A stretch of 14,758 nt of DNA from Nanobdellati archaeon (lineage in GTDB: Archaea; EX4484-52; WAPT01): contig WAPT01000009.1 of NCBI GenBank assembly GCA_015520605.1, positions 1-14,758 on the forward strand, given 5' to 3'. Positions 228 to 14,758 of this stretch are shown in pieces. The notes beneath the pieces are model-generated. The model was not told the origin of the DNA. It ran no database searches and saw only the letters and a program-made list of their open reading frames with translations. The translations under genes and the position numbers were made by a program. How positions within the stretch are numbered: the stretch's first letter is position 1; each line of letters begins with the position of its first letter.

Positions 228-1220
228 ATGGGGAGTCTTGATGTTGGTCCGTATATAGATGATAACTTAAAGAATAAGGATGGTGCAAATCTATTTAAGT
301 ACACACAAGGGGGACAGTCCGAGGAACAGCCTGAGGGGACCAAGGCACCCAGAGAAAGTTTTTGGGATCGATTGAAGAAGAAACTTTTCGGTGGAGGAAA
401 AGAAGAACCAGAAAAACCACCAGAAGAGGAACTAAAAAAGGAGAAACTATCAAAACTAAAATCAGACATAGAGCATCTGGCAAAGGAACTTCTCGGTAAG
501 GATCTTAAAGACATTAAAGGAGTTATCTATGACCCATATAACATTCAAAATGCGGAGAAATACGTATATAGGTGTAATGAATTTTTCAAATTTGCTGGGA
601 GGAAATATAGGGAACTACTGGAAGAAGTGAAAACAAAGATAAAAGGTGTGGACGAACATGACCTCTACGAAGAGTTGGTAAACCTATACAGAGTGATTGA
701 TGGGTTGAAGAATCTCCAGAGAGATATCACAACTTCAAACCAGAGATACGAGGATTACGTCGGAAGGAAACTTGATTCGCTCCTTGATAAGCTAAACATT
801 AATGAAATATATAAACAGATAAAAACAAACGACATAGATGGATTATTCAAGAATTGTGAGGAGAAGTTGAAGAAGAATGCAGAAGTATTATGTAAGATTT
901 ATAAGGCTATAGTGGAGAAGACACCGTGGCTGGGCGGAGAGATACAACACTATAAAGGTAAGAGGGAGGAGGAGGGTAATCTTCTCAAAGCAGAGGAAGA
1001 AAGACTAAATGAAAAGGAAACGGCAAAATCAGAATACGAAGAAATTTTGACTAAATATGTAGCCCCAACAGTTGAAATATATATCGATGTATTAAAGAGA
1101 GTACAGACATACGGCAAGATTATAAGAGAATTAAAGAACTTCGATATTGAAAATTACTGCAAGGAGCTCGAAAATACACCATACTTCAGTAACCTCAACT
1201 TAGAGCGATACACACAATAA
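228..1220 (+). CDS. Hypothetical charged, alpha-helical/coiled-coil protein (330 aa)
   Basis: Long open frame with a GGTGA SD and upstream TATA box, followed by a T-tract. It is K/E/Y-rich with no TM segment and no family motif I recognise. It has an amphipathic-looking segment SFWDRLKKKLFGG near the N-terminus. Confidence 0.85.
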   Translation: MGSLDVGPYIDDNLKNKDGANLFKYTQGGQSEEQPEGTKAPRESFWDRLKKKLFGGGKEEPEKPPEEELKKEKLSKLKSDIEHLAKELLGKDLKDIKGVIYDPYNIQNAEKYVYRCNEFFKFAGRKYRELLEEVKTKIKGVDEHDLYEELVNLYRVIDGLKNLQRDITTSNQRYEDYVGRKLDSLLDKLNINEIYKQIKTNDIDGLFKNCEEKLKKNAEVLCKIYKAIVEKTPWLGGEIQHYKGKREEEGNLLKAEEERLNEKETAKSEYEEILTKYVAPTVEIYIDVLKRVQTYGKIIRELKNFDIENYCKELENTPYFSNLNLERYTQ

Positions 1221-1699: not shown

Positions 1700-1722
1700 A
1701 ATTGGAATACGTCAGGTATTTC

Positions 1723-2217
1723 ATGCTCTCCCCTTATTTCATGTCACAAGATCCATTCATCCAGTTTGCCGGAGCCTTTCTTCTCATCTTTGCCGTGGTG
1801 TTTGGAACCGTAAAGCTGACCAATGTTGGCAGAGATAAATCAGCAGCGGCTCTTGTTTCCGTTGCGATAGCTCTTTTTGCATCTCTCAACCAAGCTGTCG
1901 TGAGCTTTATATGGCAGATAATGCCGTATGCGGCCATAATCATCGTTTTTCTTTTTCTTCTGATCCTCGTGAAGAATAACCTCTTTGGCGGAGAGTCACC
2001 GCAGGGAAGATCCACAAGAAGCAGCGGAGAGACCGTAATAATTCTGTTCCTTCTGCTTGTTGTCTTTGCGGTCCTTTATCAGCTCGGGGTTTTCTATTTC
2101 ATCCCCCCGGATATCGAGGAGAACCTGGTTTGGGGACTCGCAATCTTGGTTGTCATCTTTATTCTTTATTATGGAATAAAATCTTCAGGAAACGAAGAAC
2201 GACACCTTAACCAATAA
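1723..2217 (+). CDS. Small polytopic membrane protein (~5 TM), divergent paralog 1 of the tandem array
   Basis: About five hydrophobic segments. FLLIFAVVFG..AAALVSVAIALF aligns with the paralog 2-4 motif. The ORF-track start is TTG 1702, only 2 nt from the TATA box, so ATG 1723 is preferred (ATG 1741 is also possible). Confidence 0.8.
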   Translation: MLSPYFMSQDPFIQFAGAFLLIFAVVFGTVKLTNVGRDKSAAALVSVAIALFASLNQAVVSFIWQIMPYAAIIIVFLFLLILVKNNLFGGESPQGRSTRSSGETVIILFLLLVVFAVLYQLGVFYFIPPDIEENLVWGLAILVVIFILYYGIKSSGNEERHLNQ

Positions 2218-2218
2218 C

Positions 2219-2226
2219 TTTATATA
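2219..2226 (+). promoter_or_regulatory. TATA box upstream of membrane paralog 2
   Basis: TTTATATA directly after the paralog 1 stop codon. A GGTGA SD at 2270-2274 precedes ATG 2281. Confidence 0.5.
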
Positions 2227-2280
2227 TTCCCTCAAATACTTACTAAAATTAACATCATATCCTAAAAGTGGTGACTGTCC

Positions 2281-2802
2281 ATGAACTTCCTAGACGTGGT
2301 GAGCACGCTCAATCAGGTTGGATTTTACGATGTGGTGGTGCCCTGGCTCCTGTTCTTTGGTATCGTCTTCGGTCTGTTACAGAATAAGCAAATAATCACC
2401 GATGAGAGAGGCATAAATGCCCTCATAGCGACAGCCATAGCGTTTTTTATAGTCGCTTTCACTCCAGCGGGAACCACAATAGCAAACTTCTTTTCCACAC
2501 TATTCGGAGGAGCGGGGATGATAATCGGTGCTTTGCTTGTGCTCATGCTCTTTGCCGCCATAATGGGTGTGCAGGACGCATTTAAGGAGGGTGGAAACGG
2601 ACAGCCTCCAATCAAATATGCTGTGGTATTCGTGCTCCTCATATTCGCTTATCTCGTTTATGCCAATGCTTTCGGCGGAGCAACATCGGCGATGATATCC
2701 AATGATACGCTGGTAACCCTTCTGACCCTTGTCTTCATCTTGGGTGTGATCTGGATAGCGATGCAGGGCGGCGGAGGTGGAGGAGAAGGTGGAGAGGATT
2801 GA
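2281..2802 (+). CDS. Small polytopic membrane protein (~5 TM), paralog 2 (173 aa)
   Basis: GGTGA SD. Motif LNQVGFYDVVVPWLLFFGIVFGLLQ...GINALIATAIAFF. Gly/acidic C-terminal tail GGGGGGEGGED. Confidence 0.92.
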   Translation: MNFLDVVSTLNQVGFYDVVVPWLLFFGIVFGLLQNKQIITDERGINALIATAIAFFIVAFTPAGTTIANFFSTLFGGAGMIIGALLVLMLFAAIMGVQDAFKEGGNGQPPIKYAVVFVLLIFAYLVYANAFGGATSAMISNDTLVTLLTLVFILGVIWIAMQGGGGGGEGGED

Positions 2803-2857
2803 AATCGTTTAAGTCCTCAACCGCCAACCGACTTGCCAGAAACCGGGTGATGTAAAT

Positions 2858-3346
2858 ATGAACTTTATGGACGTTATCGGGATCCTCAACCAGGTTGGAT
2901 TTTACGACTTCGTGTTACCCTGGTTACTATTCTTCGGTATCATCTTCGGTCTATTACAAAGAACCGAAATTTTCGGAAACGAGAGAGGCATAAACGCCAT
3001 CATCTCCGCAGCCATAGCGTTTTTTGTTGTCAGTTACACGCCGGTGGGAGGTATAGCTGTTTATTACTCGAAACTCTTCGGAGGAGCCGCTATGATTCTT
3101 TCAGCCCTACTCGTGTTTGTGTTGTTTGTTGCGATTATGGGGCTCGAGGTCAGCGGAGAGAATGGTATCTTCCAGGAGAACAAGGTAAAGTACATGGTGA
3201 CGGGGGCTCTAATAATTCTGGCGTATATCGTCTTCAGCAACGCTTACGGCGGAGATTTTTCCCTGTATATTCCACAGGAAACATGGACGGTATTGTTCAC
3301 TTTTGGATTCATTTTGCTGGTGGTCTGGATAGCAGTCAAGGGCTAA
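2858..3346 (+). CDS. Small polytopic membrane protein (~5 TM), paralog 3 (162 aa)
   Basis: GGTGA SD at 2846-2850. Motif LNQVGFYDFVLPWLLFFGIIFGLLQ...GINAIISAAIAFF, colinear with paralog 2. Confidence 0.92.
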   Translation: MNFMDVIGILNQVGFYDFVLPWLLFFGIIFGLLQRTEIFGNERGINAIISAAIAFFVVSYTPVGGIAVYYSKLFGGAAMILSALLVFVLFVAIMGLEVSGENGIFQENKVKYMVTGALIILAYIVFSNAYGGDFSLYIPQETWTVLFTFGFILLVVWIAVKG

Positions 3347-3372
3347 TGCTATAAAAAGGGGGCGATGTTGAG

Positions 3373-3834
3373 ATGTCGCTTATGGGTGTTGTCATCTCCA
3401 ACCTGAACAACATTGGGTTTTACGATTTCTTCATGCCGTTCGTGCTTATTCTTGCTGTTGTTTTCGGAATTCTGCAGGAAAAGAAAACGATAAGTAGTGA
3501 GGTATCTGTAAACGGAGCGATAGCCATAGCCGTGGCGTTCCTCGCAACGTACACCTTACGCGGCGTGTTCTACACGGAGCTCTTTGGAATTGGTGGAATG
3601 ATAATTGCAGCATTAATCATAGTTATTCTGATCCTCGCCATTTTGGGTATAAAACCCGAGGAAATTCTCGGCAGCGGATCAAAACCGATCGTGGGGCTGG
3701 TGGCGATAATAATCGGCATAATGGCTTATCTTGCAGCATCTGGTTACGAAGCGTCCGTAAGCCCAGATACTATCCTCACAATCGTGGTTCTAATTGTGAC
3801 GTTTGGAGTAGTTTATCTTATAGCTAATAGCTAA
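3373..3834 (+). CDS. Small polytopic membrane protein (~5 TM), paralog 4 (153 aa)
   Basis: G-rich SD at 3358-3362. Motif LNNIGFYDFFMPFVLILAVVFGILQ...SVNGAIAIAVAF. Confidence 0.92.
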   Translation: MSLMGVVISNLNNIGFYDFFMPFVLILAVVFGILQEKKTISSEVSVNGAIAIAVAFLATYTLRGVFYTELFGIGGMIIAALIIVILILAILGIKPEEILGSGSKPIVGLVAIIIGIMAYLAASGYEASVSPDTILTIVVLIVTFGVVYLIANS

Positions 3835-3870
3835 AGGTGGTGGGGTAGTTAGAAGACTGCTGAATCTCAT

Positions 3871-4716
3871 TTACTTTCTTTTCATAGCACGTTCTTTCTC
3901 TTCAAACCTCCTTTTTAACTCAACAACCATCTCCTTGGATTCCCTCACACTGTCCACAAGATTGGGCACTATGTCCTTAAAGGCATCCTCAAGGCTCTTT
4001 ACCCTGGGGTCGAGCTTGGAAATACTTTCTTTAAGGTTTTTTATTTCAGTATCAAGTTTTTCGTGAACCTCTTCGAAAGACTTTTTTGTCTCCTCAAACC
4101 TGTTGTTCAGAGCGTTCAGGTTCATCTCAAGACTATCGATCCTAGAAATGAGCGTCTCAATTTTTTCATTGAAAGCATCGAGTTTCTCGTTAACCACATT
4201 CTCAACCATATTGTACATTTCCTCCACCCATTCTGCGTCATCGTAGTAATCACTTTCAGGATTATCGGTTGAGTCGGATTGAGCACTGCTCCCTATTGGC
4301 GTAAGGTCAAAAACGTTGTTCTCTCCGGAAAGCTCATACGAGCTGAAATTGCTTTCCGTGGTTGGTGGTGAAATACTACTGGAAGAATCCGTCACACTCT
4401 GCTTCAAAACTCTGGTCAGTATCCTGTCGGCATCTAAAGGGGTTAATCCCTGAGATATCAAAGCGTTTCTGACCTCTTCCTCCCCGTATCCCTGCGAGAA
4501 AAGAGAAAAAACATAATTGATCCAATGTATTTCATCAAATGGCTGTGTATAATTCCTTGTATATTGCGTCGATGCTCCCGTTTGGGATTGAGATGGAAAA
4601 GGAACACCACCGTATTCCAAAGATGGAACGGAGGATACACCACCGAGTTCAACGGAGGACAATTGTTTCTTTTTATTAGATTTTCCTTTCCCAAAGAGAC
4701 TATCCAGTATACCCAC
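3871..4716 (-). CDS. Hypothetical protein with N-terminal amphipathic helix, small helical domain, Ser/acidic linker and long C-terminal coiled coil (281 aa)
   Basis: Start reassigned to GTG 4716, which has a GGAGGT SD at 4730-4725 and gives the N-terminus MGILDSLFGKGK. Heptad-rich C-terminal half (LDAFNEKIETLISRIDSLEMNLNALNNRF...). Overlaps the upstream gene by 17 nt. Confidence 0.85.
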   Translation of the reverse strand: MGILDSLFGKGKSNKKKQLSSVELGGVSSVPSLEYGGVPFPSQSQTGASTQYTRNYTQPFDEIHWINYVFSLFSQGYGEEEVRNALISQGLTPLDADRILTRVLKQSVTDSSSSISPPTTESNFSSYELSGENNVFDLTPIGSSAQSDSTDNPESDYYDDAEWVEEMYNMVENVVNEKLDAFNEKIETLISRIDSLEMNLNALNNRFEETKKSFEEVHEKLDTEIKNLKESISKLDPRVKSLEDAFKDIVPNLVDSVRESKEMVVELKRRFEEKERAMKRK

Positions 4717-5116
4717 GGCTCTCAACCTCCAGCATATCCTCAAGCATTTCCTTTATCATTTCTTCGACCTCTTTTCTCGTTACGTATTTGGTGGTCACCG
4801 GAGATATCAGCTCTATGTATCTTTTGAGTTCCTCTATATCACTTTGTTTTGCCAGCTTCTTGACGTCTTTTCTAAGCTCTATTATATCCGTCTCAATATT
4901 TATCATTTTATCCTCAAGTATCTTTATTCTGTGCTCGATTTCTCCGCTTTTCTTGTTAACATCCTTCTGAAAGGATATGAGATCTTTCTCAAAGGCGTTT
5001 ATCCTGAACTCTAAGTTCCTTAACCTTTCCTCCAGAATTCTGAGTCTTCTCATGTTGTCATTAACCCTTCTGAAAAGCTCGTTTATGGCAGCGGTAATGT
5101 CGCCTCCCTTAAGCAA
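4700..5116 (-). CDS. Small coiled-coil protein (138 aa)
   Basis: TTG start with a GGTGA SD (5127-5123). Nearly continuous heptads (RLRILEERLRNLEFRINAFEKDL...), then LKRYIELISPVTTKYVTRKEVEEMI. Confidence 0.88.
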   Translation of the reverse strand: MLKGGDITAAINELFRRVNDNMRRLRILEERLRNLEFRINAFEKDLISFQKDVNKKSGEIEHRIKILEDKMINIETDIIELRKDVKKLAKQSDIEELKRYIELISPVTTKYVTRKEVEEMIKEMLEDMLEVESRGYTG

Positions 5117-5215
5117 AACGCTTCACCCTTCACACAACTATATTAATATGTGGTGACGAAACATTAATATATAAGTATTTGGTGATTACTGACCAAAACC
5201 TTCATCACGTTTGAA
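5117..5215. promoter_or_regulatory. Divergent promoter region between the coiled-coil operon and the ATPase operon
   Basis: 99-bp AT-rich gap. It contains CGAAAC plus ATTAATATATAA (BRE/TATA-like, readable on both strands), the palindrome ATATTAATAT at 5140-5149, and TGGTGA twice (5151-5156 and 5180-5185). Confidence 0.55.
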
Positions 5216-7504
5216 GTGGTCGAAATGTCCCAGTTTGAGCTCCCGAAACCATGCAGTTATGAATACGACAGAAAGACACGCACATTGAAGATAAACTGTC
5301 TAGGCTGCATGTACGGTGCAAGCATAGAGGACTTTGAGGAGTGCATGACCAGAGTTATAGACAGACTAACCCAGATAAGGGGTGTTGAGAGGATCATTCT
5401 GTCCCAGACACAGGATTTTGAGTATGATTATGCTCAGACCCTCATGCTTCAGGAAATAGCATCGATAATCAAGCACTATTCAACAGAAAGAAAGCTGATC
5501 TCCATAAGGGCGGTTGCTCCAACTCCGTCCGATCCAGAAGCGCCCGCAAGGCTGGCATTCATCCAGCAACTGCTTGTAAGCAAGCTCAAGCGCGATCCCG
5601 TGGGTGCTTACATGGCCCTTCTCAAAGAAATAAGAAAAGAGACGCTCAGGGCAAAGATGCTTCCCCCTCGCATCCGAACCTCTGTTAATCACTACCTCAA
5701 CAACGCACTCCTCCCGCTGAAGGAAGCTTTGGAAAAAACCCAGCTCATCTCGCTTGTGAGGGGAAGGCTTGATGAATACAGGCCCGGAGACAGAGCGATT
5801 TATCGAGAGATCTTCCATCCCATAACAAGGCCCAACTTCATGTACACACGTTTTATGTTGCTTCCCCCGGCAGACGGGAAGGAAATAGACAGTTATGTGG
5901 TGGGCAAGAACATAAAAGTGCAGATTTACAAGCTCGCCACAAGACCGGAGCATCATTACCACATCATTCCGCCTGAGCTTGACCTGAGTGAGGACGAGTA
6001 CACACTGCTTGACGCTGCAAGACAGTATCTCGCTGCTCACAAGCCGACAAGATCGGAATTCTCTGATCCGGAAAGAGCAAGGGAGGTATTCTTCAACATA
6101 GGAAAGGATCTGCTTCTCGAGCTGGCCGAGCATATGAGAATGGACGTGAAGTCGGACAGAATCAGCGAGCTTGCACAGATACTGGCAAGATATACAGCTG
6201 GATATGGAATACTGGAGGTTTTGATGGCAGATGAGAAAGTGCAGGATCTCCACATAAACGCGCCCGTAGGCACAACGCCAGTTTTTCTGTTTCATGCAGA
6301 TTATGAGGAGTGTGTGACGAACATAATCCCCACGAGGGAGGATGCCGAAGCATGGGCGACGAGGTTCAGGATAGAAAGTGGGAGACCTCTTGACGAATCA
6401 AACCCAGTTCTTGACACGGAGATGATAACTCCATATGCGAGGATTAGAGTGGCGGCCATAACCAGGACACTCAGCCCGGATGGCTATGCCTTTGCACTGA
6501 GGAGACACAGAGACAGGCCGTGGACTCTACCACTATTCATTGACAGGAAGATGATTAACCCCATGGCAGCCGGCTTGCTCTCGTTCATCATTGATGGGGC
6601 CAGAACCATCCTGTACGCGGGGACGAGAAGTGCCGGTAAAACCTCTATGCTCGGATCCACGCTGGTGGAGATCCTCCCAAGGTACAGGATAGTGACGGTG
6701 GAGGATACTCTTGAACTGCCAGTTGAATACCTAAGGAGAATTGGCTACAACATCGTCAGACTGAAATCCAGATCGATCATAACGCATGTGGAGAGCGAGC
6801 TGCCGACCGATGAAGCTCTCAGGGTGTCCCTAAGGCTCGGAGATTCATGTCTGATACTCGGTGAGGTCAGAAGCGTGGAAGCGCGAGCTCTCTATGAAGC
6901 GATGAGAATAGGCGCTCTTGCCAATGTGGTGGCCGGCACGATCCACGGTGATTCTCCTTACGGTGTCTTTGACAGGGTTGTGAACGATTTGCATGTACCT
7001 CCAACAAGCTTCAAGGCCACGGATGTCATTGTAATAGCGAACAGGTTAAGGACCGCTGACGGACTGCATACGTTCAGAAGAGTTGTGGAGATCGTGGAGG
7101 TGAGGAAGGACTGGGAGAGAGATCCCGTTAAGGAAGGCGCTTTCGTTCCTCTCATGGTCTACGATGCAAAGAAGGACACGCTTGTCCCGACGGAAACCCT
7201 GCTCAACGGGGAGAGTGTGATACTCAACGAGATTGCCAAGCGCGTCAGGGAATGGAGAGATAACTGGGAGGAGCTGTGGCAAAATATAGAAGCAAGATCC
7301 AAAATGAAGGAGGAAATTGTTAGGGTGGCAAGAGCGACTGGTAACCTGAACATTATGGAGGCCGATTTTTATGTCAAGGCCAATGTTATGTTTCATGTTA
7401 TCGGAGAGAGGGTGAGGGAGGAACACGGGGAGCTGGACTCGCTGAGAGCTCTAAACTTGTGGAAGAACTGGCTGGACACACAGGTTAGAACATTTCAAAG
7501 GTAG
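5216..7504 (+). CDS. Type II/IV secretion system ATPase (archaeal PilB/FlaI/VirB11/TadA family) with a long N-terminal extension (762 aa)
   Basis: Walker A GTRSAGKTS (6620-6646), Asp box TVEDTLEL, Walker B LILGEVR and His box GTIHG. Also has the family-typical GYGILEVLMADEKVQDLHIN and FALRRH segments. The start may be ATG 5225. Confidence 0.95.
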   Translation: MVEMSQFELPKPCSYEYDRKTRTLKINCLGCMYGASIEDFEECMTRVIDRLTQIRGVERIILSQTQDFEYDYAQTLMLQEIASIIKHYSTERKLISIRAVAPTPSDPEAPARLAFIQQLLVSKLKRDPVGAYMALLKEIRKETLRAKMLPPRIRTSVNHYLNNALLPLKEALEKTQLISLVRGRLDEYRPGDRAIYREIFHPITRPNFMYTRFMLLPPADGKEIDSYVVGKNIKVQIYKLATRPEHHYHIIPPELDLSEDEYTLLDAARQYLAAHKPTRSEFSDPERAREVFFNIGKDLLLELAEHMRMDVKSDRISELAQILARYTAGYGILEVLMADEKVQDLHINAPVGTTPVFLFHADYEECVTNIIPTREDAEAWATRFRIESGRPLDESNPVLDTEMITPYARIRVAAITRTLSPDGYAFALRRHRDRPWTLPLFIDRKMINPMAAGLLSFIIDGARTILYAGTRSAGKTSMLGSTLVEILPRYRIVTVEDTLELPVEYLRRIGYNIVRLKSRSIITHVESELPTDEALRVSLRLGDSCLILGEVRSVEARALYEAMRIGALANVVAGTIHGDSPYGVFDRVVNDLHVPPTSFKATDVIVIANRLRTADGLHTFRRVVEIVEVRKDWERDPVKEGAFVPLMVYDAKKDTLVPTETLLNGESVILNEIAKRVREWRDNWEELWQNIEARSKMKEEIVRVARATGNLNIMEADFYVKANVMFHVIGERVREEHGELDSLRALNLWKNWLDTQVRTFQR

Positions 7505-7510
7505 TCTCTC

Positions 7511-9610
7511 ATGGGAAAAAACGAGGAAAAGGAGAAACTCAGGGAAATTGAGGAAAAGGAGAGGATGATGAAGGAAATAATAAAGAGATATAACATTGTT
7601 TCTCCGGTGGAAAAAAGGGGAGAAGCATCCACAATCTCGCTTGAGTATCGCGTTTTTAAGGAAGAAGAGTTAAGAGCAAAGATGCTCAACTTTTACGAAA
7701 AGCTCTGCAAGTCCGCACCTAATCTTAACATAACCCTATCGGAAGAATTCATGGAAAAGCTGAATACTGCGATAAGATTTACTGGTCTCAAAGTCACACC
7801 GCAGGATGTAATCTCCGCTGGCTTTTTGATGGCAATCATATCCCTTCTTTCCGTGCTCCCAACACTTTTCCTTCCAATCCCACTGTATGTGAAACTCGTG
7901 ATTATACTCTTTCCTGTCATTGTAGCATATGTAATTATGTATTACCCGCTTTATCGGGCTGCATGGATCAGAATAAGAGAGGGTAGATCACTGCTACTCG
8001 CCGTTCTTTACATGATAGTCTACATGAAGACCACTCCGAATTTTGAAGGCGCCGTTAGATTTGCTGCATCCAACCTAGAAGGAAAACTCGCCCAGGACTT
8101 AAAGGAAGTACTCTGGAAAGTTGAGGTTGGGGAATACACAACGATTGAGGATGCTCTGTTCGATTATCTTAAGGTGTGGAGTCAGTACAACAAAGAAGTT
8201 GTTGAAGCCGTCCACATGATAAGGCAGAGTTTACTTGAGCCATCGGCTGAAAGAAGAGACGCGATGCTCTCCAAAGCGATAGATCTCGTGCTTGAGGAGA
8301 TGGACGAGCAGATGAAAAAATATGTAAGGGATCTCGAAACACCAGTCGTGGTACTTCACGGATTGGGCATTCTATTGCCGGTCATGGGTATGATTGTGTT
8401 TCCGCTTGTGAGTGCTTTCATGCAGGAAGTCGGGCCCAACCTCGTGAAGGTTCTGTTTGTGGGATACGACATAATACTGCCTCTGATTGTTTTTATCTTG
8501 CTCAATCAGATTTTCATGAAAAGGCCACCTACCCACACAACCGTTGAGCTTACACAACACCCGGACTACATACCACCAGGAAAGTTTAAGATTGAGATCG
8601 TAGGCAAAAGGATTATAATTCCGGCAATCATCCCGACATTAATTGTTCTTACCATAGGTATGTATCCTGTGCTAAATATTATGCTGATAACAAACTTCTT
8701 CTTCAACGTTTCGGAAAATATGAGAACAAAAAGTATGCTCGTAAGTCTTGTCTTTACCCTTGTTCTTGCAATAAGCACAGCTATGTACTATTATCTGAGC
8801 TGTTTCCAGAAAAGGAAGCTGAGAGAGGAAATAATAGAGATGGAGAAGGAATATGAGGAAGTGCTCTTTGCCCTAGGCAACAGGCTGATGGACGATCTGC
8901 CTATAGAAAAGGCGCTCGTCAAAGCGGAGGAGGATATAAAGGGGATGAAAATAGCGAACTTTTTGAGAATAGTGATCAAAAACATGACTCAGCTAAACAT
9001 GACTTTCAAGGAGGCCATCTTCAACAACCAGTTCGGTGCCCTCAGGTACTATCCCTCAGCCCTCATCTCGGCCATAATGAAATCCATTTCGGACGCGCTA
9101 AATAAGGGTCCGAGAGCCGCAGCACTCGTGCTCCTCACCGTCGGGAGATATATCCGCAACATAAGAACGACACAGGAGAAAATAGAAGATCTTTTATCCA
9201 GCGTGGTTTCAAATCTTAAGTTTCAGGCTTATGTTTTGGTTCCCGTAATAGCGGGTGTAGTGGTTGGTGTTGCGAGGATCATTCTGGCAATCTTGGCCAA
9301 AATGTCTCAGAACATGGCTGCACTCAATCTTGGAAATGTGGAGGGCGTACCCAGCATGACGTTACCAACATTTGGGAGTGGTGCAATACCCTCCGAACTG
9401 TTGCAGATCATCGTGGGTGTTTACGTTCTGGAGGTGCTCGTGATATCTGGAGTTTTCATAGCGAGAATAGAAGCTGGCGATGACAAGATTTACGAACATG
9501 ATACCGTCTGGAAAATATTGCTTGTTGGGGTACTCCTTTACATCCTCATCTATCTGATAGTCATGGCGATCTTTGGCCCGATGGTAGGAACCGTGACTGG
9601 AGCTTCATGA
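7511..9610 (+). CDS. TadC/PilC/FlaJ-type (T2SS-F) membrane platform protein with two cytoplasmic domains (699 aa)
   Basis: Starts 6 nt after the ATPase. About nine TM segments flank two T2SSF-like helical domains (NFEGAVRFAASNLEGKLAQDLKEVLWKVEVG..IEDAL and LGNRLMDDLPIEKAL..FLRIVIKNMTQLNMTFKEAI). Confidence 0.85.
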   Translation: MGKNEEKEKLREIEEKERMMKEIIKRYNIVSPVEKRGEASTISLEYRVFKEEELRAKMLNFYEKLCKSAPNLNITLSEEFMEKLNTAIRFTGLKVTPQDVISAGFLMAIISLLSVLPTLFLPIPLYVKLVIILFPVIVAYVIMYYPLYRAAWIRIREGRSLLLAVLYMIVYMKTTPNFEGAVRFAASNLEGKLAQDLKEVLWKVEVGEYTTIEDALFDYLKVWSQYNKEVVEAVHMIRQSLLEPSAERRDAMLSKAIDLVLEEMDEQMKKYVRDLETPVVVLHGLGILLPVMGMIVFPLVSAFMQEVGPNLVKVLFVGYDIILPLIVFILLNQIFMKRPPTHTTVELTQHPDYIPPGKFKIEIVGKRIIIPAIIPTLIVLTIGMYPVLNIMLITNFFFNVSENMRTKSMLVSLVFTLVLAISTAMYYYLSCFQKRKLREEIIEMEKEYEEVLFALGNRLMDDLPIEKALVKAEEDIKGMKIANFLRIVIKNMTQLNMTFKEAIFNNQFGALRYYPSALISAIMKSISDALNKGPRAAALVLLTVGRYIRNIRTTQEKIEDLLSSVVSNLKFQAYVLVPVIAGVVVGVARIILAILAKMSQNMAALNLGNVEGVPSMTLPTFGSGAIPSELLQIIVGVYVLEVLVISGVFIARIEAGDDKIYEHDTVWKILLVGVLLYILIYLIVMAIFGPMVGTVTGAS

Positions 9611-9662: not shown

Positions 9663-10019
9663 TTACTTTTTCTTTCTCTTTATCATCTCAAACTCTATCT
9701 GCGTTATGGGCTCATCACTTTTGAACTCCCCATAGATTTCCTTGAGAGCTTTCTTAAGTTTAGACTTGCTTGAAAAACCGTCCTTTTTCGCGTCTTTGGG
9801 TGTTATCTCCTTAAAGGTCTTGTGTCTCACAGTCTTTATTAGAGCTTCGCCTATCACCTCGTCTCCAGCGACGACCTCAACAACATCCCCTTCCTTGTAC
9901 TTGTTCACATGACCCTTCCTTATTGTGGTTGTTTTCACACCCGATATTATGAGGTGTTTGTAATCCTCCAAGAACTTCATCCTCTTTCTCCCGTGAGGTT
10001 TGGAACTATCTTCTTCCAT
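9663..10019 (-). CDS. ASCH-domain protein, YqfB-like (putative N4-acetylcytidine amidohydrolase or RNA-binding protein)
   Basis: ASCH signature IISGVKTTTIR, then YKEGDVV, ITPKDAKKDGF, LKKALKEIY and ITQIEF, colinear with E. coli YqfB as I recall it. ATG 10019 is preferred (GGAG at 10029-10026). The ORF track gives 10031. Confidence 0.88.
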   Translation of the reverse strand: MEEDSSKPHGRKRMKFLEDYKHLIISGVKTTTIRKGHVNKYKEGDVVEVVAGDEVIGEALIKTVRHKTFKEITPKDAKKDGFSSKSKLKKALKEIYGEFKSDEPITQIEFEMIKRKKK

Positions 10020-10030
10020 GCCTAACTCCA

Positions 10031-10050
10031 TTTAAACTTAATGTTTTAAG
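10031..10050. promoter_or_regulatory. Putative overlapping divergent TATA boxes for tmcA (+) and the ASCH gene (-)
   Basis: TTTAAACT on + starts 28 nt before ATG 10059. TTAAAACA on - starts at 10049, 30 nt before ATG 10019. Confidence 0.4.
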
Positions 10051-10058
10051 ACTTTCTC

Positions 10059-12440
10059 ATGGAGCTGGAAAGACAGCTTGAGATTATCATGGAAAACGCT
10101 ATCGAGCTTAACGAGAGGAGAATGTTTGTTATATCGGGAAAGTTTAGGAGCAAAGTTGTTTGGCTAAGGAGGACGCTTAAATCTTATCTTAAAGTTACGA
10201 GGAAACTTTTGAAGAGAGAGCATGGTGAGTTAGTTTTTCTCTGGATGGGTAAGGACACGGAGGGGGAAATGAGCACAGAGGTTAAAAAAGCGCTTGATAG
10301 GGAGAATATAAGGTACGACTTCGTTAAATTCAAGGAAGCTGACACGGTGCTCGGAACGAACTACGACGGACTCATTCTCGATCTCAACGAGGGCATAGCA
10401 CCGAATGATCTTGGAAAAGTAATCGGGGTTGTGAAGGGCGGCGGCATCATCATTCTTTTAATGCCACACCTTGAAGAGTATAAGAAAATATTTACAAGGT
10501 TCCACAGGATGATCCTCGTACCTCCTTACACAGAAGAACACGTGAGGAGGGTGTTTAACAGATGGTTCGTAAAGAAGCTGCTGGAGCATGAGGGAATAAC
10601 CATAATTGAGAATTGTGTGCCGGTAAAGCTACCAAAGATAGTCAAGAGGAAGAGGAAGAAAAGGAGCAGGGATCTTGAAATTCCCGAAGATGTTGAGGTC
10701 AAGCGAGGAATTCTGAAGCTTTGCGCCACAAGAGATCAGCTGGACGGCTTGCTAAAGCTCTGGAAGTTTTTTAAGGAGGGAGAGGAGAATATATTCATTC
10801 TCACATCCCACAGGGGCAGGGGTAAATCGAGCCTTCTCGGGCTCTTCATAGCAGCGCTTGTGAGCAGGGAAAAGGCAACCGTTGTGATAACCGCCCCTGA
10901 GAGATCGAGTGTGAGGGAGCTTTACAAGTTTCTGGATCTCGGACTTAGGAGAGCCAAGATCAATGCAAGGGTGATGGAGAAGTACGACAACATGGAGGAC
11001 ATAATAATAAAGAGGACGGGCTCCAAGATAAGGTACTTTCCGCCCTACAAGCTGAGAAGGGTGAAGGCAGACCTCCTTATAATTGATGAGGCGGCTTCCA
11101 TTCCGATCTATATTCTCTTCGATGCGATGAAACGCGCCAGAAAAGTAGTACATTCCACTACAGTCCACGGATATGAAGGCTCAGGAAGAAGCTTCAACAT
11201 AATCTTTCTAAGGAGTCTCGAAGAGTCCAAAGTACCCTATGTCAAGCATGAGATGGTTGAGCCTATAAGGTACAGCGAGGACGATCCGATAGAGAACTGG
11301 CTTTTTGATGTGCTTCTGCTTGACGCCGAACCGGCAGAGATAACAAAAAAGGAAATGGAAGAGCTTGAGATCTCCAAACTCAAATACGAAAGGGTGGATA
11401 TGGAAACGCTGCCTTTTAGCGATGAGAGGAAATTAAGACAGCTTTTCGGAATATTTGTGACAGCACACTACCGAAACAACCCCAACGACTTTGGCCTGAT
11501 GTGTGATGCACCCCACCACGAGATAAGAGCGCTTACATACAACAACAAGGTTATCTGTGCTTTGCAGATAGCTAAAGAGGGAGGACTAGAAAAAGAAGCC
11601 TACGATATGTACTATGGAGATATGCCTCCGGGTCATCTCATTCCCGACAGGATGATAAAGCACTATAGGAATGTGGAGTTCGGTAAAATGGAGGGGCTGA
11701 GGGTTGTTAGGATAGCTGTGCATCCTGATTTGATGGGGAAGGGTATAGGCAGCTACATGCTCTCAAAGCTGGAGAAAGAGGCAAGACAGCACGGCGATGA
11801 TTGGGTAGGAGCAAGTTTTGGAGCTACACCGAGGCTTCTGAACTTCTGGAAGAAAAACGGCTTTGTTCCTGTTCACATGGCTCCTGCCCCAAACCCATCA
11901 ACGGGAGAGTTTTCAACCATAGTGGTCAAGCCGATAAGCAAAAAGGCAGGCGACCTTTTCTCCATGGCTAGAGGAGAGTTTATTATAAAGCTTGTGAACT
12001 CTCTGCCCGAACCATTTGATCAGGTGCCGGTTGAGCTGATTCTCGGAGTTCTTGACGATGGCATAAAGGAAAAGAAATATCTACCAAAATTAACGGATGT
12101 GCAGTGGAAAAGGTTAGCTTTTTACGCTCACAGCGTGCTAACCTTTGAAAGCGTGAGGGACTGCATGTTTGAGGTGTGCAAGGCGGTATTTTTAGCTGAT
12201 AAAAAACCGGAACTTTGCGGGGTTCACAAGCGGATTATACTTGCCAAGGTGCTGCAGGGAAAGAGCTGGGAGAAGGTGAAGGACGAGCTTGGAAAGGGAT
12301 CCATCTACTGGATGATAGAGCTGAAGGATGTGGCTAAAAAGCTTCTTACCTTTTATGGATCAAACAAGGTGAGCGAGAGGGAAATAAAGAAATTGGATGA
12401 AGTGTTCGAGAAAATCAGGGAGAAAATGAAGAATAGATGA
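10059..12440 (+). CDS. tmcA: tRNA/rRNA cytidine N4-acetyltransferase TmcA/Nat10 (793 aa)
   Basis: N-terminal LGTNYDGLILDL..PNDLGKVIGVVKGGG. Helicase motifs RGRGKSS, IIDEAA and STTVHGYEGSGRSF, then EPIRYSEDDPIENWL and AHYRNNPNDF. GNAT motifs RVVRIAVHPDLMGKGIGS and GASFG. Confidence 0.97.
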   Translation: MELERQLEIIMENAIELNERRMFVISGKFRSKVVWLRRTLKSYLKVTRKLLKREHGELVFLWMGKDTEGEMSTEVKKALDRENIRYDFVKFKEADTVLGTNYDGLILDLNEGIAPNDLGKVIGVVKGGGIIILLMPHLEEYKKIFTRFHRMILVPPYTEEHVRRVFNRWFVKKLLEHEGITIIENCVPVKLPKIVKRKRKKRSRDLEIPEDVEVKRGILKLCATRDQLDGLLKLWKFFKEGEENIFILTSHRGRGKSSLLGLFIAALVSREKATVVITAPERSSVRELYKFLDLGLRRAKINARVMEKYDNMEDIIIKRTGSKIRYFPPYKLRRVKADLLIIDEAASIPIYILFDAMKRARKVVHSTTVHGYEGSGRSFNIIFLRSLEESKVPYVKHEMVEPIRYSEDDPIENWLFDVLLLDAEPAEITKKEMEELEISKLKYERVDMETLPFSDERKLRQLFGIFVTAHYRNNPNDFGLMCDAPHHEIRALTYNNKVICALQIAKEGGLEKEAYDMYYGDMPPGHLIPDRMIKHYRNVEFGKMEGLRVVRIAVHPDLMGKGIGSYMLSKLEKEARQHGDDWVGASFGATPRLLNFWKKNGFVPVHMAPAPNPSTGEFSTIVVKPISKKAGDLFSMARGEFIIKLVNSLPEPFDQVPVELILGVLDDGIKEKKYLPKLTDVQWKRLAFYAHSVLTFESVRDCMFEVCKAVFLADKKPELCGVHKRIILAKVLQGKSWEKVKDELGKGSIYWMIELKDVAKKLLTFYGSNKVSEREIKKLDEVFEKIREKMKNR

Positions 12441-12746: not shown

Positions 12747-14758
12747 ATGCAGCTGATAAAGAAGGTAGGGGCCACACTGGTCGGTTCTTTGATGGCCAGT
12801 TCAGCCATACTGGCTGGAGCTCTGGCTGCAGACTTGAGTAGCTTCCAGAATATGACCACAGCGAACACAGTGGTGGTTGTGGGAGCAAACGCGAAGACAG
12901 CTGACGTAGTCGGGGCAATAAATGTCGCGGCTGCTCTCGCAAGACACGGAGCCGAGGCAACAGTAACGGGAGCTGGCGAGGTGACCAAGGTTACAGGGGG
13001 TATAGCTCTCGAGACTGAGAACACCAAAATATATCTCGGAGATCCTATCAACAAGGCTAAGCAGGCCTTGACAGCGGATGACTTGCCAAACCTGTTGGCG
13101 AGCGGGACAGTGGTGGATAACACAGGAACAGAATACAAATATGACCAGTACCTGTATGTAGGAAACAAGGAAGTCACATTCGGTAAACCCGACGATTTGG
13201 ATAACCCTGTAATTTACATACCTATCGGAACCGATCCGAACGCGCCACTTTACACGCTGAAAGTAGTGTTCAATGATGAGATCAACTTCAACAACACGGA
13301 TGTGCAGGGCAACACAATAAAACTCTTCGGCAAGGAGTTCACGATAGGGCAGGGTTCAACAAACACAAACATAATCCTTTACGAAGCATCTCAGGAAGTT
13401 ACTGTGGGTGCCGGTGAGGAAACAACGGTCTCTATCAATGGTAACGACTACAAAATAGATGTTGTAGGTATCTCCCCTGACGCACAGAGCGCGACAATAG
13501 AGATCAACGGAAAGACCTACACAAAGAGTGAGGGAGAAGATGTAGTTATAGGAGACACAGTCTTCCATGTGAAGGAGATCAATCTTTACGAGGTGCCAGA
13601 GAAAACAGGTAATGTCGTGCTGACAATAGGAAGCAAGAAGATTGTGCTGGCTGACGGAGAACCTGTTAAAATCGGTAAGGATGAAAACCCTGTCGACGGA
13701 ACAATGGTCGACATAACTCTAGGTAGTGACGGTGCAGTTTCAACTATAGAAATAAAGGTCGCGGCACAGGATACGGACAGTGACTTCATGAAAGCGGGAG
13801 GAGAGTTCGTAGATCCGGTCTTCGGATTTAAGGTCAAGCTCAAATCCGTGGATCTGAAGGCGAACAGGGATGTGATAGCTGTAGCAACATCCGGCGACAA
13901 GGTAGCTACAGTGAAGGTAACCGACAAAAAAGGAGACACAAAGACAATTGAGTGGGCTTACGATAATTCAGGCACTTTGAGCCTCGCTGATGGGGACCAG
14001 AACCCGATAGCAGTTTACGAGGGAGAAAAAGTACCTGAGAAGGGCTACTTGATGATAACTCAGGGTGGATTCACGCACCTGCTGAAGGTCACGGACATAT
14101 CTGCTGACGACGACGGTATTCAAGATGATAAAGTAACACTGCAGGACGTGTTCACTGGCACTACCTATGATGTTAAACTGACAGGAGACACCACAGCGGG
14201 CGATGAAACACCATTGACTGGTACAAAAGTAATCGATGGATACACATACAATTTCACAGCTTACGATACAAATGACGATGGTATTTACGATGTTATTTCA
14301 GTTATATGGAACCCCGCAAACGAAACGGTGGTGTACCCAGCAATCGAACTGAAGAACGGTGAGAAGATAGCGTTTGTTAAACCAGCCAAGGATGTCGTTT
14401 CGCTAACAGTGGGTGGAAACGACGAGACGCTAGTGTTGCCGACCGGTGATGCAAAAGTGACTTACACCGACAACGGTACCGCGATCACTGATGTATATGT
14501 GAACGGAAATGAACTTACACTTGGTAGCAGCACTTCGGTAAATGTTGGTGGTGTGTACTACGCATTTACTTGTGGTCCCGCAGGAACAACAGTTACCTGT
14601 GATGTGAATTTAAACAAGTATGAAAACACTACTGCAGCACCTCTTGGCAAACCGGCAATCTTGATGATAGAAGCGAAAGACAACAATGGTAACCAGGGTG
14701 TTATCGCAGTATATGCGGACGATGACAGCGGGAAGATAACCGTAGATAATGTGCTCAT
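12747..14758 (+). CDS. S-layer protein, 5' part (at least 670 aa, runs off the window; absent from the ORF track)
   Basis: Translated by hand with no stop to the window end. AGGTGA SD. Sec signal MQLIKKVGATLVGSLMASSAILAGALA/ADL. VVVGANAKTADVVGAINVAAAL matches the S_layer_N-type motif of Methanococcales/Thermococcales-like S-layer proteins. Rich in T/D/V/G beta-strands, with several N-x-T sequons. Confidence 0.9.
   Translation, partial: MQLIKKVGATLVGSLMASSAILAGALAADLSSFQNMTTANTVVVVGANAKTADVVGAINVAAALARHGAEATVTGAGEVTKVTGGIALETENTKIYLGDPINKAKQALTADDLPNLLASGTVVDNTGTEYKYDQYLYVGNKEVTFGKPDDLDNPVIYIPIGTDPNAPLYTLKVVFNDEINFNNTDVQGNTIKLFGKEFTIGQGSTNTNIILYEASQEVTVGAGEETTVSINGNDYKIDVVGISPDAQSATIEINGKTYTKSEGEDVVIGDTVFHVKEINLYEVPEKTGNVVLTIGSKKIVLADGEPVKIGKDENPVDGTMVDITLGSDGAVSTIEIKVAAQDTDSDFMKAGGEFVDPVFGFKVKLKSVDLKANRDVIAVATSGDKVATVKVTDKKGDTKTIEWAYDNSGTLSLADGDQNPIAVYEGEKVPEKGYLMITQGGFTHLLKVTDISADDDGIQDDKVTLQDVFTGTTYDVKLTGDTTAGDETPLTGTKVIDGYTYNFTAYDTNDDGIYDVISVIWNPANETVVYPAIELKNGEKIAFVKPAKDVVSLTVGGNDETLVLPTGDAKVTYTDNGTAITDVYVNGNELTLGSSTSVNVGGVYYAFTCGPAGTTVTCDVNLNKYENTTAAPLGKPAILMIEAKDNNGNQGVIAVYADDDSGKITVDNVL

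Follow-up and report, generated by a model that had tools for sequence, protein, structure and literature searches.

The window analysed here is the complete contig C8 (14,758 bp) of a Nanobdellati archaeon, whose genome (G000) amounts to 863 kb in 27 contigs and is 90.7% complete and 0% contaminated. It contains an eight-gene block made up of four paralogous genes for a small five-helix membrane protein (termed tm5, copies p1 to p4), the coiled-coil genes cc290 and cc138, a gene for a FlaI/GspE-type secretion ATPase, and a gene for a two-repeat TadC platform (Table 1). An earlier note on this DNA had described the same layout, that is, four paralogous genes for proteins with five transmembrane (TM) helices, two coupled coiled-coil genes, a 99-bp divergent gap, an ATPase and a TadC-like platform, and this description was found to be correct. 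The note had gone on to propose a pilin-less, undescribed machine. As detailed below, the block is best read as a type IV filament (T4F) machine with an undescribed accessory set, and is less exotic than the note proposed.

Table 1. Features of the eight-gene block, with positions in the window (aa, amino acids; ORF, open reading frame)
Feature	Position	Strand	Remarks
tm5 paralogue p1	1723..2217	+	164 aa from ATG 1723; ORF listed from TTG 1702; most divergent copy
tm5 paralogue p2	2281..2802	+	173 aa; N-terminal amphipathic helix and 5 TM helices
tm5 paralogue p3	2858..3346	+	162 aa
tm5 paralogue p4	3373..3834	+	153 aa
cc290	3871..4743	-	helical domain, low-complexity linker, coiled coil; probable start GTG 4716
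cc138	4700..5116	-	138-aa coiled-coil protein
Divergent intergenic region	5117..5215	.	99 bp, AT-rich, TATA-like runs
FlaI/GspE/CpaF-superfamily secretion ATPase	5216..7504	+	762 aa; PF00437 match
TadC/FlaJ/PilC-type platform	7511..9610	+	699 aa; two T2SSF-like repeats, about 9 TM helices

A TATA-like run, TTTATAAAAA, is located at 1692-1701, close upstream of the start codon of p1. The listed reading frames of cc290 and cc138 share 44 nt, and the overlap shrinks to 17 nt with the GTG at 4716 as the start of cc290. The p4 and cc290 genes are convergent, with a gap of 36 bp between them. Judging from its TATA-like runs, the region between cc138 and the ATPase gene probably holds promoters for both directions.

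The ATPase generated a hit on PF00437 with 45.4 bits (cut-off 24.9), and its closest relatives in the PDB were the archaeal afGspE-type protein 2OAP, CpaF and FlaI, with E values of 3e-24 to 5e-15 over residues 298-698. Its sequence contains GTRSAGKTS, LILGEVR and AGTIHG, which we take to be the Walker A motif, the Walker B motif and the His box, respectively. The protein is, as judged from its sequence, a secretion ATPase of the FlaI/GspE/PilB family with the nucleotide-binding motifs intact. The score against the FlaI equivalog NF058587 was 125.9 bits (cut-off 550), and the cut-off of the TadA equivalog was not reached either. The protein also carries a C-terminal extension and, at its N terminus, a lineage-specific extension of some 300 aa, the latter showing good conservation across the orthologues. 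The N-terminal region was modelled at a pLDDT of 84.9, and a Foldseek search of the PDB with the model of residues 1-330 gave no fold match (best E value 0.17), although a whole-model search with a multi-domain model such as this may miss a likeness confined to a single domain. A zinc-binding Cys4 module in the N-terminal region was considered and rejected, because the four N-terminal cysteines are conserved at 47-81% only. PilB3_N had no match on the window contig. An intein interrupts some ATPase orthologues immediately behind the P-loop, at a point equivalent to about residue 500 of the ATPase in the window (locus L029, 9989-13849, and also L028 and L031; Intein_splicing at 95.7 bits, together with LAGLIDADG_3), and about 20 genomes have ATPase open frames of 1250-1800 aa.

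The 699-aa platform protein scored 15.3 bits against Pfam T2SSF, under the cut-off of 25.2. When a profile of 49 orthologues was compared by hhalign with the canonical TadC halves encoded in the same genome, it aligned to them twice, at a probability of 96.9% over residues 135-327 and of 87.7% over residues 407-577, and the protein was therefore regarded as a fused two-repeat platform. A different arrangement is seen in one genus, in G006 (contig C23, 28498-35249) and likewise in G001-G005, G007 and G008, where the ATPase gene lies between two TadC-like genes, the second encoding a paralogue 31-34% identical to the window TadC.

Among the tm5 copies, identity to p2 is 57% for p3, 37% for p4 and 23% for p1, and all four matched the tm5 family profile with E values from 3e-46 (p1, 3.1e-46) to 7e-73. 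Five hydrophobic helices were predicted both by hydropathy and in the AlphaFold2 model of p2 (pLDDT 81.5). By Lys/Arg counts, the cytoplasmic side comprises loops 1 and 3 as well as the C-terminal tail, suggesting an N-out/C-in topology. The start of TM1 is marked by G14 (121/134 sequences) and P21 (129/134). TM1 of the tm5 family opens, at positions 10-21 of p2 (window 2308-2343), with an almost invariant Gly that precedes Phe-(Tyr/Phe)-(Asp/Glu), and a Pro comes seven residues on. Bacterial prepilins start with a Gly/Phe/acidic pattern, to which the start of TM1 in tm5 is loosely similar, but the segment preceding it in tm5 is not basic.

Pfam and NCBIfam gave no family for the window copies of tm5, no single Pfam model was matched by more than 3 of the 134 family members, and a Foldseek search of the PDB with the p2 model returned no significant fold match (best E value 4.4). 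The possibility that tm5 is a diverged TadC was ruled out by hhalign, in which the probabilities against TadC profiles were 0.2-1.7%. At E ≤ 1e-3, the tm5 profile retrieved 2083 representative clusters (50% identity), a number that falls to 478 at E ≤ 1e-10. Their lengths were almost always 150-200 aa, and the extra length of the longer members consists of charged tails only, without added domains. The nearest clusters in the ESM Atlas, which are used here as leads only, were archaeal and were labelled Methanobacteriota, Aenigmatarchaeota and Nanobdellota. In arrays of three, the best match of a copy was located at the same array position across genomes in 164/250, 201/270 and 145/225 cases, and the median identity within arrays was 33%. 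These values indicate paralogues of ancient origin in a fixed order, which is what one would expect of distinct subunits. Neither the tm5 family nor its association with this locus was found described in the literature covered, to which the supplementary tables of PMC11291902, PMC4858521 and PMC13705601 did not belong; these tables may list tm5 neighbours or an arCOG. The accessible parts of PMC5898192 and PMC6393860 had no bearing on the family.

Neither cc138 nor cc290 has a TM segment by hydropathy, a signal peptide or a class III motif, and Pfam searches with the two proteins and members of their families gave generic coiled-coil matches only, all under the cut-offs. In cc290, a small conserved helical domain at the N terminus is connected by a proline-rich low-complexity linker to the C-terminal coiled coil. 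Conserved motifs were recognized in cc138 at the N-terminal side (ELVxRxN..RRxRxLEQ) and at the C-terminal side (NPxxSxFVT.EEVE). DUF7310 matched 6 of 12 cc290 members below its threshold, and the same model also gave matches in all 14 control genomes, that is, it is non-specific. Complex prediction for the full ATPase and cc138, both supplied as alignments, gave a score of 0.00, which was obtained without controls and counts neither for nor against binding. In one genus (locus L100, 5239-7964, minus strand; the same genes in L102 and L103), three same-strand genes precede the cc138-cc290 pair, which does not face the ATPase gene there. The products of two of these three genes 5′ of cc138, 446 aa and 170 aa long, begin in a class III-like manner, and no Pfam family was found for the three.

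Coiled-coil proteins encoded next to an ATPase and a TadC could be exported as attachment fibres rather than retained as cytoplasmic scaffolds. Long coiled coils are able to form fibres, and a sigma-1-like predicted structure and detection in the proteome are reported for such proteins in the accessible part of PMC11291902. We nevertheless regard this role as very improbable for cc138 and cc290, given that both are devoid of a signal peptide, a class III motif and a TM segment, and that the N-terminal helical domain and proline-rich linker of cc290 read as typical of cytoplasmic adaptors.

The distribution of the five gene families was determined in 42 genomes representing the phylum of the window genome, all from one order, and in 151 genomes sampled from a second DPANN phylum, which is the larger of the two. 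In the own phylum, an ATPase orthologue scoring at least 549 bits was present in 41 of the 42 genomes, with paralogues scoring at most 117 bits, and the 42nd genome carries an N-terminal fragment at a contig end. The tm5 family was found in 40/42 genomes, mostly as tandem arrays, cc138 in 39/42 with a single match each, and TadC in 39/42. In the second phylum, 149/151 genomes had the ATPase orthologue, at 44-57% identity over the full length, and 150/151 had tm5. Both phyla combined, the ATPase is present in 191/193 genomes and tm5 in 190/193, which agrees with the statement in the earlier note that similar genes recur in DPANN genomes. The T4F assembly core is near-universal in the DPANN archaea sampled.

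For gene order in the second phylum, 60 loci were used, namely those from the first 60 genomes listed in which 9 kb or more of contig precedes the ATPase gene, with about 8.8 kb taken per side. As they were picked solely on the distance of the ATPase gene from the contig start, these loci are blind to neighbours. Annotation with the family profiles found cc138 in 52 loci, cc290 in 50, TadC in 49, tm5 in 44, and all five families in 36; cc290 orthologues adjoin cc138 in 50/60. Wherever tm5 was in the locus, a coiled-coil gene accompanied it (44/44), and hardly any tm5 copies lie outside the locus in these 44 linked genomes (114 locus ORFs vs 111 genome-wide matches, the two counts coming from different models). 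The reverse test, starting from tm5, covered 26 metagenome loci of at least 10 kb (of 80), on contigs some of which are near-duplicates; cc290 was present in 22 of them, cc138 in 18, an ATPase scoring at orthologue level (at least 300 bits) in 18 and TadC in 15. The order tm5 array, cc290, cc138 / ATPase, TadC recurs in the two DPANN phyla.

In the own phylum, cc138 and the ATPase gene are within 10 kb of each other in 21 genomes, tm5 and the ATPase gene in 16, and cc138 and tm5 in 23. Nine genomes (G001-G008 and G017) have the block split, with the coiled-coil genes staying with the tm5 array and the ATPase and TadC genes on another contig. In G001, G004 and G006, the three of the nine in which the flanks were examined, three class III-like genes precede cc138. 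Taken together, these observations show that the linkage of all five gene families is conserved. The earlier note had suggested that the eight genes form one machine and had set a linkage and synteny check beforehand, with lack of linkage to count against it. The linkage was found, and the shared order in two phyla, the 60 loci and the reverse test from tm5 indicate one conserved module.

The same counts also bear on another explanation, in which tm5 is a DPANN housekeeping membrane family with a function of its own and stands beside the pilus locus through inherited gene order. With tm5 in 40/42 and 150/151 genomes, its co-occurrence with the other families says nothing; it is unlinked in 16/60 loci, it is alone in the 8 genomes checked, it lies on the convergent strand, and in several loci its other neighbours are genes for what, judging from the sequence, we take to be L15e-like ribosomal proteins. 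The behaviour of the block when it splits points in the other direction, since the coiled-coil genes then go with tm5 (nine genomes), just as tm5 in a locus is always found with coiled-coil genes (44/44). In addition, the linkage is seen in both phyla and also in the contigs found by starting from tm5, which exceeds what drift usually keeps at 44-57% ATPase identity. We therefore consider an independent housekeeping role of tm5 unlikely.

Pilins and their processing enzyme were then sought inside and outside the window. The statement in the earlier note that no pilin, archaellin or prepilin peptidase is encoded in the window was confirmed. The note also gave FlaH, FlaF and FlaG as missing from the window, no search by those names having been made here, and PF01917, used for archaellin, had no match in the genome (90.7% complete). 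Outside the window, the genome has one copy of an A24 peptidase gene on contig C10 (31108-31470; 36.6 bits, cut-off 26.5), and an A24 peptidase is present in 146/151 genomes of the second phylum. Pilin candidates were detected on contigs C15, C18, C19, C24 and C27, with Pilin_N matches on C18 and C27.

Among the 60 orthologous loci, 15 contain members of a family of small class III pilins (92-136 aa, cysteine-containing; E ≤ 1e-5) in 1-4 copies, and in 8 of the 60 loci one to three small class III pilin genes are located between the ATPase and TadC genes. The machine thus appears not to be pilin-less, and the deduction of the earlier note that it lacks pilins, and hence that tm5 might be the extruded subunit, is not supported, given these pilins and the A24 peptidase in the second phylum and in the own genome. 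The density of class III-like candidates is 6.25 per 100 kb across the 60 loci, about three times the 1.85 per 100 kb of the own genome, and some of the hits reflect start codons that lie within the TadC or tm5 frames. On contig C19 (35407-35742, minus strand; locus L104), a gene standing by itself encodes a protein of about 104 aa whose N-terminus is class III-like and whose tail is rich in cysteine. As this protein is a weak relative (E value 4.7e-4) of the small pilins that other lineages encode between the ATPase and TadC genes, it is a candidate for the cognate pilin.

The own genome also contains two canonical type IV pilus (T4P) cores, on contigs C1 (13042-16989) and C7 (11552-15071), in which a gene for an ATPase (670 aa and 530 aa, respectively) is followed by two half-size TadC genes. 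In genome G155, the module ATPase is the only strong T2SSE match, and the A24 peptidase is retained. Every genome looked at also encodes another protein, of about 620 aa, that matches T2SSE at a borderline 25-36 bits (G000, contig C10, 46862-47236, in a 613-aa frame; 610-630 aa in G155, G104, G049, G110 and G124).

On balance, with slightly better than even confidence, we read the block as a type IV filament machine that has its pilins encoded remotely in the own genome, with cc138/cc290 and tm5 as system-specific accessory parts. In such a machine, the single A24 peptidase encoded on contig C10 would process small class III pilins encoded elsewhere in the genome. The ATPase, of the hexamer type, would then drive the TadC platform to polymerise the processed pilins into a surface filament, which would plausibly serve host or surface contact. 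The cytoplasmic cc138/cc290 pair may act as a scaffold or regulator at the ATPase, by analogy with FlaX or ArlCDE, and the N-out/C-in tm5 paralogues may form a membrane collar or anchor beside TadC. Ring, pore or scaffold roles of tm5 and the coiled-coil proteins are conjectures from sequence.

Several points weigh against this reading. No pilin is encoded in the window, where two class III signal-peptide scans gave no candidate on the contig, and the sole relative of the operon pilin family in the own genome, on C19, is weak (E value 4.7e-4) and unlinked. The two further ATPase/TadC loci on C1 and C7 could serve the pilins of the own genome instead, and the argument from G155 concerns one genome, whose completeness is not established. 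The tm5 genes are missing from 16/60 loci, and neither coiled-coil nor tm5 genes are present in 8/60, with tm5 arrays standing alone in those 8 genomes. Moreover, not one of the three pairs is linked in 10/42 own-phylum genomes, a group with many fragmented assemblies. Since each of the five families is found in almost every genome sampled, presence/absence co-occurrence cannot discriminate.

A further reading, in the sense of the earlier note, is a T4F-derived device that does not build a pilus and that would serve secretion, uptake or exchange, with tm5 as the working membrane part (a ring, pore or moved subunit) and the ATPase and TadC as the motor. Such a device would suit a highly conserved locus kept as a single copy in reduced genomes, with inteins in some ATPase orthologues, and it would suit a tm5 family that is without known fold or family and consists of ancient ordered paralogues. 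Members of the small pilin family are lacking in 45/60 loci, and the accessible part of PMC4858521 offers a precedent in subsystem 4D, which is pilin-less and pairs an ATPase with a 4-5-TM protein. The window locus, however, has a full two-repeat TadC, unlike 4D, and orthologous operons contain class III pilin genes, which in 8 loci separate the ATPase gene from that for TadC. In addition, nearly all genomes have the A24 peptidase, and the tm5 genes are transcribed convergently and not together with the motor genes. A non-pilus device is accordingly judged to be likewise unlikely.

It is also conceivable that tm5, the coiled-coil proteins and the ATPase/TadC pair together constitute an envelope machine belonging to the DPANN core, in which an ordered tm5 hetero-oligomer would form a conduit or anchoring collar and a short pilus would act as a piston or grapple, for physical exchange of lipids, metabolites or DNA with the host and not for adhesion alone. 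If true, this would explain why a single highly conserved copy is kept in reduced genomes. We hold an exchange machine of this kind to be distinctly unlikely, and retain the filament machine with accessory parts as the preferred reading.

The remainder of the window contains genes that were left outside the block. On the 3′ side of TadC are an ASCH-domain gene and the gene for the tRNA(Met) cytidine acetyltransferase TmcA (9663-12440), in an order kept in the two closest relatives (L016 and L030). On the other side, the ORF at 228-1220 (plus strand) encodes a Lys/Glu-rich protein of 330 aa without a TM segment or a Pfam or NCBIfam match; it had 0 relatives among 16 related loci and was left out of the module. 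The ORF at 12747-14756 (plus strand), which runs off the contig end, encodes a secreted protein rich in Thr, Gly, Val and Asp, which begins with a signal-like segment and has no Pfam match; it is possibly an S-layer protein or adhesin, and blastp gave no homologue of it 3′ of TmcA in L030. No tRNA or Rfam families were found in the window, and a look for RNA runs covering 1700-9610 yielded none.

DPANN archaea rely on contact with host cells, and the molecular apparatus of this contact is largely unknown. The T4F genes of Nanobdellati are typically scattered, and a 2026 census found the T4F loci of these lineages scattered and hard to classify, as stated in the accessible part of PMC13705601; profiles of the module described here could improve automated T4F detection in these lineages. 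The analysis defines a module of five families, namely the ATPase, TadC, two coiled-coil proteins and the tm5 paralogues, and points to its probable substrate, the small class III pilins that are encoded within the operon in related lineages. A large unannotated membrane family, tm5, is added as a candidate component. The result is a concrete gene list for proteomics, cryo-electron tomography and genetics in the few cultivated DPANN systems.

The motor of the archaellum includes a FlaI-family ATPase, a FlaJ-type platform and the cytoplasmic coiled-coil accessory proteins FlaX / ArlCDE. The window locus resembles it by analogy, in having an ATPase and a platform with cytoplasmic coiled-coil partners. 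Identity with the archaellum was rejected, as the FlaI equivalog score is 125.9 bits against a cut-off of 550 and the genome, at 90.7% completeness, has no archaellin match.

Epd/Tad-type (system 1) pili are similar in that their ATPase and platform go together with class III pilins that are short, at about 100 residues, like those in the orthologous loci. System 1 has two platform genes (PMC13705601, accessible part), as do the C1 and C7 loci of the own genome, whereas the window locus has one fused gene, and no coiled-coil or tm5 partners are described for system 1.

The likeness to subsystem 4D lies in a T4P-type ATPase encoded with a 4-5-TM protein of no known family in a pilin-free locus, according to the portions of PMC4858521 and PMC13705601 at hand. 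The window locus differs from 4D in its genuine two-repeat TadC, in tm5 being unrelated to TadC profiles and in the pilins of the orthologous loci, and membership of 4D was rejected for these reasons. Subclade 4F is characterized in PMC4858521 by an ATPase whose N-terminal domain bears cysteines and by an arCOG07564-type coiled-coil protein as its partner, and it is described there as having nanoarchaeal ATPases for which no pilins had been identified. By description, the window locus may resemble it in an extra Cys-containing N-terminal domain of the ATPase and an intracellular coiled-coil partner (PMC4858521 and PMC13705601). On the other hand, the cysteines of the window ATPase are only 47-81% conserved, the DUF7310 matches are sub-threshold and non-specific, and PilB3_N has no match.

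The closest resemblance in print is to two conserved T4P-like loci with coiled-coil proteins (CCPs), which PMC11291902 (Nat Commun 2024), in its accessible part, describes across cluster 2 DPANN and Undinarchaeota, the CCPs having been detected in the proteome. These proteins are predicted there to be structurally like viral sigma-1, and a role in attachment is suggested; cc138 and cc290, in contrast, have no export signal. Matched by description only, the published loci are like that of the window in having a CpaF/FlaI-type ATPase and TadC beside one or two coiled-coil proteins, across DPANN including Aenigmarchaeota. The word 'undescribed' in the earlier note is therefore to be dropped for T4P-like loci with coiled-coil proteins in DPANN, which are already known, and kept for the link with tm5, which was not found in the literature covered. 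The main text of PMC11291902 contains neither the word 'transmembrane' nor a 5-TM family, whereas the window locus has, next to its coiled-coil genes, the tm5 array.

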